Below, piece after piece: positions 1,259-10,259 of a stretch of DNA of 64,000 nucleotides. The stretch spans positions 4,416,001 to 4,480,000 of the forward strand of contig CM000152.2 of assembly GCA_000004695.1 (NCBI GenBank), in the 5' to 3' direction. The DNA comes from Dictyostelium discoideum (Eukaryota). The notes under the pieces are model-generated. The model did not search any database and was not told the origin of the DNA. It saw only the letters and a program-made list of their open reading frames with translations. A program made the position numbers and the translations under genes. Position 1 is the first letter of the stretch; each line of letters starts with the position of its first letter.

Positions 1259-1375
1259 TTCATTTTCATTTTCATTTTTATTTTCATTTTCATTTCATCT
1301 TCATTTTCATTTTCATTTCATTTTTTTTCATTTTCATTTTCATTTCAATTTCATTTTCATTTTCATTTTCACTAT
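1259..1375. repeat. (TTTTCA)n hexamer microsatellite of about 19 units. It encodes the low-complexity C-terminus (ENENE.../MKMK...) of the minus-strand RCC1 gene.
   Basis: cattttcattttcatttt... is visible directly and abuts the N gap. Confidence 0.9.
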
Positions 1376-2661
1376 TAGCAACTTGAGTGGAAGTTTGTTC
1401 AATATATTGACTGAATTCTATAAAACCATTAATGATAGCATTTATTGTTTCAAGTGAAATTTCAAATCCTTTTGTTTTTGTTAATATCTCTATATTGTTT
1501 AATGTAACGATTGCATTTGCTTCAAATTCTTTTGAATAATTTTCTAAATATTGATCCCATTCATATTTGGTTGATTTTGGTGAATTAACTGTAGTTGAAT
1601 TGTTATTATTATTATTATTATTAATATTTTGTTTAAAACTTGATTTTAAATAAGACATTAATCTTTGAGAACGATCAGAATGATTTCTATTTAAAGTTAA
1701 ATGACTATCAATTTTTAAAACTGTATTAATTGGTAAAGTATTTATATCTGGAAAAGATGTATCAGTTTCCATGTTATTAATTATATTCTCTGAAATATAT
1801 TTAATACAATATTGTTGTAATGATTCAATTGGTGCTATTAATTGAATCTTTGAAGGGGTTGCTAATGTATGAAATTTACCACATGATACTTTATCAATTA
1901 CAATCTTATTCTTTTTTAATGATTGAATGAACTGTGGTGAAAATTGATTTCTTGCCCCATCATAATGTGATAATTCATTAAAATGATATTGAAATTCTAA
2001 CATTTCTTCTTCAGTTAGTATTCCTTTATCATTAATTCCTTGACTATCTTTATCATTGTCGTCGTCATCATGGTGGTCATCATCACTATGGTCGCTTTCA
2101 TCATCATCATCATGGTTATCTTTGTTTTTATTTGTATGTTTAGTTTCATTATTTTCATTTTTATCTTTAATTTCAAAATTTATTAATTGACTTGTTGGTT
2201 TATTAAATTTAATATTTTCACTAATGATTGTTTCATCTTTTGTAGTATCAACTTTGAATTGAATAGTTTGAAAACCACCCTCACCATTACCAAGTGCCAC
2301 AGACATCCTAATGTCATCACTAACTACTAATCCACCACCCATTACTATTAATTCACCATTATTTGTTACAAATGCACTATGATAAGCACCTGATGATATA
2401 TGTTTAATCTCTACCAATGGTAATTCAATTAATATTGGTTCAGTTGAATAATCAATACCTTCAATACCTAATTGACCATTTAAATTTTCACCCCAACCAT
2501 AAACTTGATTTTGATAACCATCTAATGCTAATGAATTATAATATCCTGATGATATTTCAATTATATTTCTTAATTGTTTTAATTTCTTTGGTATAATAAT
2601 ATTAAATTGTTCTTCCCCTTCTTCTTCTTCTACTACTTTTTCTACTACTTTTTCTTTAATT

Positions 2662-2744
<83 letters not shown>

Positions 2745-3250
2745 AAATTCATCATAATGACCAGTTGAAATACCTCCACCATTTGAATAAACTTCACCTC
2801 TGTTTGTTAAGTATAAATAATGATTTACACCACATGCTACAGATTGAATTTCAATATTATTTTCAATAAAGTAATCTACTGGTTTAGGTTCATTATTAAA
2901 ATTAAAACCTATGAATGCAATACCATTATGTGATACTCCAATTGAATTATTTAATGAACAATCGATTGCTTTAATTGGATATTGAAATTTTAATAATCTT
3001 GGTATTAATGTATCAATACTTTTACCCCATTCCCAAACTTTACCTTGATCTGTAATTGCATATGACTGATTCCAACATGATACTGATACTATCTTTTCAT
3101 TCTCAAATTGTTTATTTAATATTGGTACTTTACTATACACTAATGAATTATTACCAAACTAAATTTTAAATTTTAAAAATTTTTTTTTTTTTTTTTTTTT
3201 TTATTATAAATTAATTATTATTTATTTATATGGTATTATTATTATTATTA

Positions 3251-3580: not shown

Positions 3581-3659
3581 AGTAAGAGTTTGATTAAAAT
3601 TAATTAAAAAAGAAAGAAATTAAAAATAATAAAACAATACCAGATCCCCAGCAATACAT
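1290..3659 (-). CDS. RCC1 (regulator of chromosome condensation)-repeat protein of about 704 aa. Exons: 3659..3641, 3539..3313, 3158..1290.
   Basis: Exon 1 on the minus strand is ATG TAT TGC TGG GGA TCT G followed by a GTATTG donor. Exon 2 starts after ...AAAAAG and gives YCWGSGRIGHGSP...CAGRAHSLAIDNKNRCWVFGENSSAE, then a GTAAGT donor. Exon 3 follows TTTAG and is the 616-aa ORF. There are repeated RCC1 signatures: GRIGHG, WGENLNGQLG, and GVNHYLYLTNRGEVYSNG. The phases are consistent (19+227 nt = phase 0). Confidence 0.75.
3256..3295. repeat. (GATT)10 microsatellite inside intron 2 of the RCC1 gene.
   Basis: gattgattgatt... is visible directly. Confidence 0.95.
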
Positions 3660-4383
3660 TGGAAGTAGTTTTAATTGTTTGTGATTATAAATAATAATAA
3701 TAAAAAAAAAAAAAAAAATTGAATTTTTTTTTTTTTTTTTTTTCAAAGAATCTTTTTGTTTGTTGACAAATGAACCCAAATTTTTTTTTTTTTTTTTTTT
3801 AGTTTATTTCTCTAATTTTAATTACTTCTAATTTTATATTTATTTTCATAAATTATTGTTTCATTAGAAATAAATTTTTTTTTTTTGTAATGGATCGAGT
3901 GTGGAAAGAAAAAAAAAAATTTTAAAAAAAATAAAGAAATGAAAAGTAAATTAATATAATTATCTTAATTGTCTTTATTTATTTTTTTAACTTGATTTTT
4001 TATTTATTTTTGATATGAATTTAGTAAACAAAAATGGACCACTCAAAAATAAACGAAATGATATGAAATAATTTTTTTTTTTTAAAAGTTTAAAAAAAAT
4101 TAAATCCAAAAAAATAAAAACTAATATGTATAAAAGAAGATAAAAATTATTTTAAAAAATATTGAGCTTTATTAGTTTATTGATTCTAAATATGTTACTA
4201 TTTTTTTTATTTCTGTACATGTGAAGACACATTTATATGTACCAGTAAGCGAGGCTGTAATAAAAACTTTGATTTAAACAGCCTAAATGTGTCCTAACAA
4301 AAAAATGTATCCATTGCAAAATACACAACTTTTTTTTCTTTTAAAAACGTGCATTTATTACAAAATACAAAAATTGGATTTGA

Positions 4384-4506
4384 ATTGCCAGAAGCCATTT
4401 CAAACAAAAACATGTTATAAATCAAAATACCAAACTAATTAGAAAAAAAAAAGTTTGGTATTTTGATTTAAAACACGTTTTTGTTTTGAAATGGCTTCTG
4501 GCAATT
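4384..4506. repeat. Long near-perfect inverted repeat (hairpin) with ~53-bp arms and a 15-nt A-rich loop. It is flanked by imperfect ~40-bp direct repeats at 4269-4310 and 4520-4560.
   Basis: The left arm aattgccagaagccatttcaaacaaaaacatgttataaatcaaaataccaaact is the reverse complement, with about 3 differences, of the right arm agtttggtattttgatttaaaacacgtttttgttttgaaatggcttctggcaatt. The flanking repeat is tgatttaaac..atgtgtcc..aaaaaaat. Confidence 0.8.
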
Positions 4507-5048
4507 AAGAACAAGAAAACCTTGATTTAAACTGTTGCTATTATGTGTCCAAAAAAATCACACAAGTAACCACCAATCCTTTTCATTTAAGATATAAAAA
4601 AAAAAAAAAAAATAATGATTAAAATTAAAAAAAAAAAAAATTAAAAAAAAATAAAAAAAAAAAAAAGAAAAAAAAATAAAAAAAACGAGAACGAAATTCG
4701 AAGTGATTTGGAAAATGTAAAAAACAAATGAAATTTCAAGCCAATATTATTTTTTAAATATATAAGAAAAATAAAAAAAATAAAAAAACAAATAATTAAA
4801 AATAACATTATAAAAAAAAATAATAAAAAAAAGTGTGTGTGATAAAAAAGAAAATGATGATCAATATCCAAATTGGGGTTGTAGTTCGAACAGTGTTGAT
4901 AAAAAATTATTACAAAAAAAAAATAAAAAAAAAATAAAAAAAAAAAAAAAAAAAAAAAATGAAAAAACAAAAAAAAAAATTTTCAAAAATTTTTAAAATT
5001 TTTTTTTTTCACATTAATTACTATCATATTTATACCTACACACACAAA

Positions 5049-5316
5049 ATGTTTGCTTTAAGATCAATTCGTTCAGCTACTAAAGCTTTCCAAACCACTT
5101 CAATTGTTTCTCAAAGGTATAAAAATAAATATAAATATAAAAATAAAAATAAAAATTAGATATACAAATATATAAACATTGTTTTTTTTTTTTTTTGTGA
5201 TCTTATTTTATGTCAATGAAATAAAGTAAAAACAAAATACAACAAACAAATAATAAAAAAATAATGACAAAATAAAGATAAAAATATAAAAATAAAAATA
5301 TAAGATTATTGAATGG

Positions 5317-5357
<41 letters not shown>

Positions 5358-5920
5358 ACATAGTTTAGTAAATACTAATTTGAAACATTATAAAATAAAA
5401 TATTTATATAAAATATATTTAGAGGATTTTTACAAACTACCCTTAAAAACGTCCTCTTCCCAACTGAAAGACAATTAAGACGTCAATACTTAGCTGATAA
5501 TCACATCAAAGTAGGTTCACCAGAATTCGATAAATTTTATGAAGATTTACAACCATCAGAACTCTCAAAACAATCTGGTTTAAGTGATGCCCTCCTCGAT
5601 GACCCAATCCTCCACATTTGTGTCATCAAATACAACAAAAACATTGTCCAAAGGTAAGTAATCAACCAAACACTCAAATTTAATATAAATAAAACTGAAC
5701 GAATTGAATTATAAAAAGAAAATAGATATAAAAATCAATATATACTAATAATTAAAATCAACAATAACAGATACAACTTAACCCCAGAACAAGAAAAAGA
5801 TATCATGGAAAACTATAACGTTAGTGCTGGTGACCCATCACTCGAACAAATTTTACCAATCCCAGTCCCAGCAGTAAATATTACATTATTATTACATTAT
5901 TATTTTTATTTTTATTTTTA

Positions 5921-5999
<79 letters not shown>

Positions 6000-6099
6000 A
6001 TTTATAAAGTACACATTTACTAACTCAATATATATAATATTAAATCAATTTTAGCATATCTTCGAAGAGTTACCAATTGTCAAAGTTTTAAATAACTAA
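5049..6099 (+). CDS. Small protein of about 148 aa with a mitochondrial-presequence-like N-terminus; function unknown. Exons: 5049..5116, 5423..5653, 5771..5873, 6055..6099.
   Basis: MFALRSIRSATKAFQTTSIVSQ is basic and hydroxylated with no acidic residues, as in a mitochondrial presequence. Donors are AG|GTATAA at 5117, AG|GTAAGT at 5654 and GCA|GTAAAT at 5874. Acceptors are TTTAG at 5422, AACAG at 5770 and TTTTAG at 6054. Phases 2, 2 and 0 carry through to a TAA at 6097-6099. The alternative of reading on into a (TAT)n poly-Y tract was rejected. Confidence 0.55.
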
Positions 6100-8610: not shown

Positions 8611-10259
8611 TTATTTCTTTGGTAATTCAATTGATTGTGGATAATTAAAATAATTATTTGGATCATATTTTCCTTTAATTTCTTGAAGTTTTTTATAATT
8701 TGATTTGGTGACATAGAGTCCGGTTTGCCAATCTTCAAATTCATCATCTGGATAGTTATTATTTAATTTATCACCAATTGAAGAGAGTTTAGAGTTTACA
8801 AGTTTTCTAAGACCAGAGAATAATGGATCATTTTCAGTGTTATTATATTGAGCGACAATAGTGTATGACCACATAGCTTCATCACCTCTGTGAAGGAAAG
8901 AATTGAATGGAGAATCGATTGAACCAGTTCTATCTTGATTTTGTTTACCACCATGATAGAAAATAGCTTGATTAATATTTAACAATGTTTCTGGTTTAAC
9001 TAAAGAGGTTGAATTGATGATATTGGTGACGGCATATTTATAGAAATCGTTGATAGCCTTTGGTACATCGTTTTTAGATAATTTCTTAACGAATCTTCCT
9101 TTGGTGAATTGTCTTAATGGATTATTATCATAACTCATTGAGCTAATGACTTCCCAGAATGTTTTCTTTAAAGTTTGGATATCCATGGTGGTGACTTTAC
9201 CCAATGGTGTACAGGTTGGATTTGATGGTGGACAAAGGAAACCGGTTAACAATTTTCTGAATTCGAAATCGCCCTCTTCAAGTGGACCATTGTAAAAGAA
9301 TGTAATACTAGCGGATGGAGTCATATTTGCGGATTTCAAAGTTAATTGAGAATACATATTGGCATAGATATTTTCACGAGTTTGTTCAGTGGCAGAACGT
9401 ACATAAGAATCCAATAAGGCGAGAGCTTTATCTAAATTGACAATATCGAAACGAATGGTATTCTTGTAAAAGTATTGTGGAATTGGGTAAACTTTAATTT
9501 TGTAATCTACAACAACACCAAAACCACCACCACCAGAACCAGCCAATGCCCAATAGAGGTCACTATATTTATTCTTTGGATTGGCTTTAACAATTGAACC
9601 ATCTTCAAGTACAACGGTGAATTCTAATATGTTATCAGCCATATAACCATATTTACCACCAAAGTAATTTGATCCACCACCCAATACAACACCCATACCA
9701 ACAGTTGGACAACTACCAGCAGTTGTTGCCAATAATAATTTAGTTGTGGCATTATATAATTCAATAACTTGTACACCAGCTTGTACAACAACAGTTTGAG
9801 CTTCAACATCAATTTCAATACCTTTTAATGAACTTAAATCAATATTAACAGTTTTATTTAACATTGAAAATTGTGTTGCTGAATGACCACCTGATCTAAT
9901 TGATACCTAAAATTAAATTAATTTTTTAAAAAAAAAAAAAAAAACAAAAAAAAAAAAAATTAATTAATTAATTAATTGAATTTAAATTTTTAAAAAAATA
10001 ATAAAATGATTTTATAAAAAAAAAAAAAATAAAAACTTACACCTCTATTAATACTTTGTGCATATAAAATTGCATCACTAATTTCAGAAGCATTCGTTGG
10101 TTTAATATAACAGTATGCTCTATTATTCATTAATGGATTAATAAATCTATAATAATTTGGATTATTATAATCAACACATTGGACGGCTTGAGTTTTTGAA
10201 ATTTGATTAATAGTAATTAATACAAATGATAAAAATAATAAAATATTATTTAATTTCAT
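8611..10259 (-). CDS. Secreted FAD-binding oxidoreductase of the berberine-bridge-enzyme (BBE)-like / vanillyl-alcohol-oxidase superfamily, about 490 aa. Exons: 10259..10041, 9906..8611.
   Basis: Exon 1 encodes a signal peptide (MKLNNILLFLSFVLITINQISKT...SINRG) and ends at a GTAAGT donor. Exon 2 follows TTTTAG and begins VSIRSGGHS, the FAD-attachment motif R-S-G-G-H. It continues through the PCMH-type FAD-binding region (GGGFGVV) and ends with a BBE-type C-terminus (YKKLQEIKGKYDPNNYFNYPQSI). Confidence 0.85.

Follow-up and report, generated by a model that had tools for sequence, protein, structure and literature searches.

A long near-perfect hairpin in the RCC1-like/cox4 spacer of Dictyostelium discoideum, probably a young palindrome born in place from copies of a local repeat unit

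The extreme fold outlier on the plus strand of a 64-kb window of Dictyostelium discoideum AX4 DNA (the window being the whole stretch that was analysed, 64,000 nucleotides of chromosome 3) is a 124-nt hairpin, which lies in the 1,389-bp divergent spacer between an RCC1-like gene and the gene for cytochrome c oxidase subunit IV (cox4). We favor the explanation that this hairpin is a young palindrome that originated within the AT-rich spacer itself, and that it is at present a neutral by-product or raw material for a proto-miRNA. Both arms of the hairpin and the direct repeats that flank them are diverged copies of one local unit of ~80 nt, and among the genomes compared the element is confined to the D. 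discoideum clade.

The spacer is bounded by the RCC1-like (RCC1-repeat protein) gene, which starts at 3659 on the minus strand, and by cox4, which starts at 5049 on the plus strand and whose product matches P30815; the protein encoded by one of the window's ORFs is identical to D. discoideum AX4 DDB_G0281423. An earlier note on this DNA had named the neighbors as an RCC1 gene and a gene for a small mitochondrial protein, and both were confirmed, the latter as cytochrome c oxidase subunit IV. In a second coordinate system, window positions 4383–4506 correspond to CM142509.1:4,494,539–4,494,662. The annotation of the spacer holds no feature besides the two flanking genes, and neither tRNA nor ORF scanning there gave a credible hit; the longest ORF, of 51 aa, is broken by an 85-nt indel in wild strains. 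The features of the spacer that are discussed below are the following (window coordinates).

4252–4284: small 7-bp inverted repeat (halves 4252–4258 and 4278–4284), not conserved in the cryptic-species isolates
4262–4346, plus strand: unit copy U1, which includes the left direct repeat of the earlier note, AAAACTTTGATTTAAAC...ATGTGTCC; core CAAAATACACAACT, then a T-run
4343–4378, plus strand: partial unit copy U2, AAAAACGTGCATTTATTACAAAATACAAAAATT
4383–4436: left arm, direct-orientation copy of the local repeat unit; outer part AATTGCCAGAAGCCATTTCAAACAAAAAC, inner part variable
4437–4451: loop, A-rich, AATTAGAAAAAAAAA
4452–4506: right arm, unit copy, inverted
4515–4558, plus strand: partial unit copy DR2, the right direct repeat of the earlier note, AAAACCTTGATTTAAAC...ATGTGTCCAAAAAAAT
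4584–4690, minus strand: T-rich tract of ~100 nt, ending with G at 4584, 78 nt upstream of the hairpin base
Hairpin stretch for probing either strand: UUGCCAGAAGCCAUUUCAAAC or its complement

The left arm (54 nt) and the right arm (55 nt) are separated by a 15-nt loop and pair over 52 bp, with two mismatches and one 1-nt bulge. The coordinates, arm lengths, loop, and count of about three differences that had been read from the sequence beforehand were all correct, and the RNA folding that had been proposed as a check bore the structure out: the minimum free energy of 4383–4506 was −68.3 kcal/mol (z −17.9), with all 200 dinucleotide shuffles folding less stably. Folded as DNA, the hairpin reached −50.3 kcal/mol per strand (z −16.2). 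Sliding a 140-nt fold across the plus strand of the window (6,362 segments, mean −14.9 kcal/mol, SD 7.1 kcal/mol) gave −69.4 kcal/mol for the hairpin segment versus −39.3 kcal/mol for the runner-up. The minus-strand RNA fold of 4370–4520 was slightly stronger than that of the plus strand (−74.6 versus −70.5 kcal/mol) because one A·C mismatch turns into a G·U pair. The element is also GC-richer than its surroundings, as had been claimed (27% versus 18.5% in the surrounding kilobase). The smaller hairpin that the same note placed nearby fared less well: its halves, AGGCTGT and ACAGCCT, are present, but they are separated by 19 nt rather than 23 nt, and with z −1.6 and 11 of 200 shuffles folding equally well, this inverted repeat is no stronger than chance.

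To describe the relation of the arms to their flanks, we aligned seven copies of the unit: U1, the two AX4 arms, each extended into its flank (upstream for the left arm, and with the right arm entered as its reverse complement), the segment 4515–4575, both arms of a homologous hairpin in a cryptic-species isolate (L004, D. cf. discoideum), and an extra segment found in a wild strain. The seven-way alignment shows a common pattern of ~80 nt with a consensus of roughly AAAACTTTGATTTAAAYWGCC...AACAAAAAMATGT...CAAAATACCAAACT followed by a T-run, and at the locus itself there are three to four direct copies and one inverted copy. The imperfect direct repeats noticed earlier do exist (4262–4306 and 4515–4558, U1 versus DR2; local alignment z 8.5 against shuffles), and the arms are homologous to this adjoining sequence: in the same shuffle test, U1 aligned to the AX4 right arm with z 8.3, to the AX4 left arm with z 4.4, to the L004 right arm with z 11, and to the L004 left arm (L004 5341–5427) with z 23, the last being clearly orthologous. 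With up to two mismatches allowed, the 14-nt core CAAAATACCAAACT occurs directly at 4317, 4361, and 4423 and inverted at 4452, that is, three direct and one inverted occurrence within 150 bp; elsewhere in the 64 kb it has one match, at chance level. Together, these alignments show that the arms and the flanking direct repeats are diverged copies of one local unit.

The wild strains carry the local repetition further. In these genomes Tandem Repeats Finder detected 1.8 copies of an 89-bp repeat, which continues without a break into the left-arm base. The additional tandem copy of 85–89 bp is located at the position of U2, and the lab lineage has one copy fewer. The tandem duplication spans 5177–5262 in one wild strain (L006) and 5152–5312 in the other (L007), and it is absent from the AX4 window and from a second chromosome-level assembly (L008). 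The extra copy includes a third, degenerate arm start, which reads AATTGCCAGAAAC in L007 and AATTACAAGAAAC in L006. Intermediates are thus present at the orthologous site, in the form of a weak hairpin in L004 and of the extra copy, with a different stem, in the wild strains.

We compared the orthologous locus across nine other assemblies, most of which appear to be drawn from the genome set of PMC12745789, after reaching each locus by homology search with both flanking proteins. Besides the AX4 window, three further D. discoideum assemblies have the strong hairpin. The spacer of L008, a separate chromosome-level assembly of D. discoideum, is 100% identical to that of the window, and in the two diverged wild strains (L006 and L007) the palindrome folds at −66 to −71 kcal/mol (z −15), with a predicted stem of ~59 bp versus 52 bp in AX4. 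In L004, an isolate of the cryptic species, a homologous imperfect hairpin occupies the same place, and it is shorter (~40 bp) and weaker (−31.5 kcal/mol, z −6.9). The other cryptic isolate, L010, lacks 348 bp that correspond to window positions 4271–4618, the hairpin included; this gap extends 112 bp past each arm, and there are no terminal inverted repeats and no duplication at its ends. The spacers of D. citrinum, D. dimigraforme, and D. firmibasis are shorter (764–1,017 bp) and can be aligned only in the cox4-proximal half. Sliding-window folding of the orthologous spacers of these three species and of L010 found no hairpin, only pairings of A-runs with T-runs; inverted-repeat detection on the orthologous spacers was swamped by such pairings. 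In D. purpureum, which was covered by sequence search rather than by folding of the spacer, no 18-mer of the arms and no homologous spacer was found. From this distribution the element is confined to the D. discoideum clade among the genomes compared. The two cryptic isolates differ sharply at the spacer, L010 keeping window 4195–4270 and lacking 4271–4618 (L010 5540–5600), and L004 lacking 4189–4258 and keeping U1 and the inverted copy. We therefore regard the spacer as an indel hotspot across the whole clade, beyond the palindrome itself.

Within D. discoideum, the two halves of the stem have had different histories. The outer 29 bp are the same in the lab lineage and the wild strains, and the outer part of the left arm (AATTGCCAGAAGCCATTTCAAACAAAAAC) is identical in all D. 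discoideum genomes compared, while nowhere in the spacer is variation greater than in the inner stem and the loop. In AX4 the inner stem pairs TTATAAAT with ATTTAAAA, and in the wild strains it pairs TTTCACAT with ATGTGAAA; one or two pairs are altered on both arms, the count depending on the alignment register. In the inner stem of the left arm, 6 of 25 positions differ between strains, compared to 2 of 25 between the left and right arms of AX4. By this comparison the arms evolve in concert, each being more like its partner within a genome than like the same arm in another strain. Such covariation would be explained equally well by selection for pairing and by mechanical correction of one arm from the other, and only two independent lineages contribute to it. 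The outer stem was considered as a site of selective constraint, and this was rejected: its invariant runs of 51 and 27 nt give no constraint signal because the same spacer has invariant runs of 82, 74, 62, and 54 nt elsewhere. Relative to the wild strains, the lab lineage has lost 13 nt (a T-run, then CTA) on that side of the loop where the T-run lies, and 6 nt at the base of the stem; in folds predicted for the wild strains, T10 pairs with A10 and the stem is longer. Deletions of this kind are typical of instability at the center and the edges of a palindrome.

We propose the following origin for the element. As the copies at the locus display, a spacer unit of ~80 nt was duplicated repeatedly in tandem and one further time as an inverted copy, and the adjacent direct and inverted copies pair into the 52-bp stem (~59 bp in the folds predicted for wild strains). 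The inverted copy may have been made by replication template-switching or by fold-back. Once formed, the stem could have been kept intact by arm-to-arm correction or by selection for pairing, and the center of the palindrome would have become a hotspot for indels and substitutions. In its current state the element is most likely a neutral structural by-product, and it is a substrate of exactly the type believed to give rise to Dictyostelium miRNA genes. Were one of the strands transcribed, the RNA would form a long near-perfect duplex and should be a good substrate for the Dicer-like nuclease DrnB, yielding 21-nt RNAs.

The earlier note had suggested a MITE-like or foldback transposon remnant, and we consider it very improbable that such an element inserted here with the direct repeats as its target-site duplication. 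The locus does have the outward form of one, with long arms resembling terminal inverted repeats, a short loop, and flanking direct repeats, and the segment is missing from several related genomes; the arms qualify as terminal inverted repeats, but trivially so, as those of any palindrome do. The direct repeats, however, are not a short flanking target-site duplication: they are 44–47 nt long, imperfect (~80% identical), placed 77 and 9 nt from the arms, and paralogous both to the arms and to further local copies. Nor is there a precise empty site, as the loss in L010 reaches 112 bp past each arm (4271–4618) and is bounded by neither terminal inverted repeats nor a duplication, and the sister lineage represented by L004 carries a degenerate homologue of the hairpin at the same site. 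The search for other copies, run on the 64-kb window and on ~140 kb of related Dictyostelium DNA, placed the arm sequence at this one locus only. Because the repeats are not target-site duplications, the sequence occupies a single locus in the DNA searched, L004 has a degenerate orthologue, and the L010 loss has no clean boundaries, we do not classify the element as a MITE or foldback transposon. Scans of wider collections gave no arm match among viral sequences and an arm 20-mer in six metagenome contigs; each of these contigs matched 20–27 nt of one arm, and we rejected the six matches as chance, since they were short, confined to one arm, and in unrelated contigs of 34–51% GC. An assembly artefact such as a fold-back chimera might be thought of because the window has an assembly gap elsewhere (the N-run at ~1160–1260), but it has next to no probability and is refuted by the presence of the palindrome in four independent assemblies, of which L008 is 100% identical to the window and the two wild strains have variants of their own.

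That the DNA itself acts here, as a cruciform-forming element influencing the divergent RCC1-like and cox4 promoters or local replication, seems improbable to us. The predicted DNA hairpin is stable (−50.3 kcal/mol per strand) with an AT-rich center, and it sits in the divergent promoter region; on the other hand, in the closest relatives, which lack the hairpin, both genes and the conserved promoter blocks next to cox4 are still in place, and the palindrome center is the most variable part of the spacer. A working small-RNA gene, in which a primary RNA transcribed through the hairpin would be processed by DrnB/RbdB to 21-nt miRNAs or hairpin siRNAs and these loaded into Argonaute, is a possibility that we hold only tentatively. 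Here the predicted fold is consistent with such a gene: at 124 nt and −0.55 kcal/mol/nt, the hairpin falls inside the range of published, confirmed D. discoideum precursors (87–129 nt, −0.51 to −0.73 kcal/mol/nt). By the high-confidence miRNA criteria that PMC6161686 (Table S1) adopted for D. discoideum from Kozomara & Griffiths-Jones 2014, its energy lies below the threshold of −0.2 kcal/mol/nt, and any 21-nt duplex of the stem has at most two unpaired positions per strand where at least 60% of duplex bases should be paired. By these predicted properties it is structurally indistinguishable from D. discoideum miRNA precursors, and it could be the structured noncoding RNA that the earlier note had also mentioned. 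The best Rfam matches are all to miRNA-precursor models, yet they are generic and below threshold (MIR8562, 39.9 bits versus a gathering threshold of 211; MIR7696, 37.7 versus 83), so that there is no family membership; what the matches pick up is no more than the overall form of a long AU-rich hairpin.

Further observations bear on the small-RNA gene from both sides. Start sites of D. discoideum pri-miRNAs are preceded by a T-rich run ending in G (PMC6161686), and the minus-strand tract 78 nt upstream of the hairpin resembles this motif; the likeness is weak and non-specific, however, as T-rich/G motifs lie on both strands and are common in this genome. Both one-sided transitions yield G-U pairs in minus-strand RNA, and the minus strand is marginally favored as the transcribed one because of the promoter-like tract just upstream and these G-U pairs. 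The structure has been retained in three diverged D. discoideum lineages despite ~20% divergence of the inner stem, but pairing can persist without selection. Long, almost perfect hairpins are regarded as a hallmark of newly evolved amoebozoan miRNAs (PMC11014262). Against this, no sub-sequence of the arms was found in Liao 2018, Edelbroek 2024, or Meier 2016, miRNA tables and supplements included, or in the wider full-text literature that was searched. The only ddi-mir-70xx on chromosome 3 in these tables is mir-7097, whose sequence differs from that of the hairpin and which lies at 3.74 Mb (NC_007089.4), far from the hairpin at 4.49 Mb (CM142509.1); the ddi-mir-70xx set (Avesson et al. 2012, RNA 18:1771) is excluded as the identity of the hairpin only indirectly. 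Within the window, no target-like complementarity to the arms was found, only low-complexity matches to A-runs.

A stronger form of the same idea would be that the birth of a hairpin-RNA or miRNA gene from a spacer is caught here in visible stages, with the product transcribed and diced in D. discoideum, which we think doubtful. The first stage, with no hairpin, would be represented by D. citrinum, D. dimigraforme, D. firmibasis, and L010, the second by the imperfect ~40-bp hairpin of L004, and the third by the near-perfect, co-evolving stem of D. discoideum (52 bp in AX4, ~59 bp predicted in wild strains). The young palindrome formed in place, at present neutral, is the reading that we prefer.

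Several other features of the locus were noted. Two non-coding blocks upstream of cox4 (4686–4781 and 4850–4923) are invariant among D. discoideum strains, with runs of 82 and 74 nt, and their counterparts in D. citrinum, D. dimigraforme, and D. firmibasis still align at 72–81% identity; one of the blocks includes a small palindrome, CGAAATTCG. The blocks are probably the real promoter or regulatory elements of cox4. Beside the start of the RCC1-like gene (window 3724–3762), a T-run of ~20 is followed by CAAAGAATC, and the combination is conserved in D. discoideum, the cryptic isolates, and D. citrinum (L001 ~9925–9945, L010 ~4986–5020). A further motif, AACCCAAAT (window 3773–3781), lies ~30 nt beyond the T-run and CAAAGAATC; it is conserved in the discoideum clade and absent from D. 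citrinum L001. It resembles the DUSE promoter element of ncRNA genes ([AT]CCCA[CT]AA) without matching it. The RCC1-like ORF (window 1290–3140) has homologues among the matches listed in D. citrinum (78%) and D. purpureum (47%). Just past the 3′ end of the RCC1-like coding region there is an N-run, an assembly gap, at ~1160–1260, and X runs occur in the ORF translations. The last cox4 intron contains a (ATT)n/(TTA)n microsatellite of ~100 bp (window 5880–6000), which reads as a poly-Tyr ORF.

The miRNAs of dictyostelids turn over very fast, and the origin of new ones has been posed as an open question (PMC11014262). The locus offers a dated series of several genomes for one route, by which tandem and inverted duplication would be followed by concerted evolution of the arms. 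If the hairpin is silent, it would still illustrate clearly how palindromes form and become unstable where a genome is extremely AT-rich, and it would warn that hairpins similar to miRNA precursors come about without having a function.

Set beside known systems, the element shares its inverted arms, short loop, and flanking repeats with MITEs and foldback elements, including the multicopy thug-S-associated miRNA loci of D. discoideum, but it differs from them in having no target-site duplication, no dispersed copies (in the 64 kb and ~140 kb searched), and homology to the adjacent local sequence. In plants, proto-MIRNA genes reportedly form through inverted duplication, according to the model ascribed to Allen et al. 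2004. As in that model, an inverted duplication here would have given a long near-perfect fold-back, which in the model erodes later; there, however, the duplicated piece comes from the future target gene, whereas here the unit is non-coding spacer without an ORF, and the hairpin therefore has no built-in target. Quasi-palindromes are also mutation hotspots of the Ripley type, where template-switching and arm-to-arm gene conversion act in palindromes. The element is like these hotspots in that both arms change together, the center is hypervariable with small indels, and tandem repeats adjoin it, and unlike them in that the mechanism is read from the sequence pattern alone. Finally, it resembles the intergenic miRNA genes of D. 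discoideum (ddi-mir-1176, -1177, -7097, and -1179, among others; PMC6161686) in being intergenic, at a single locus, less AT-rich than its surroundings, and restricted to one species. [quoted passage not shown]
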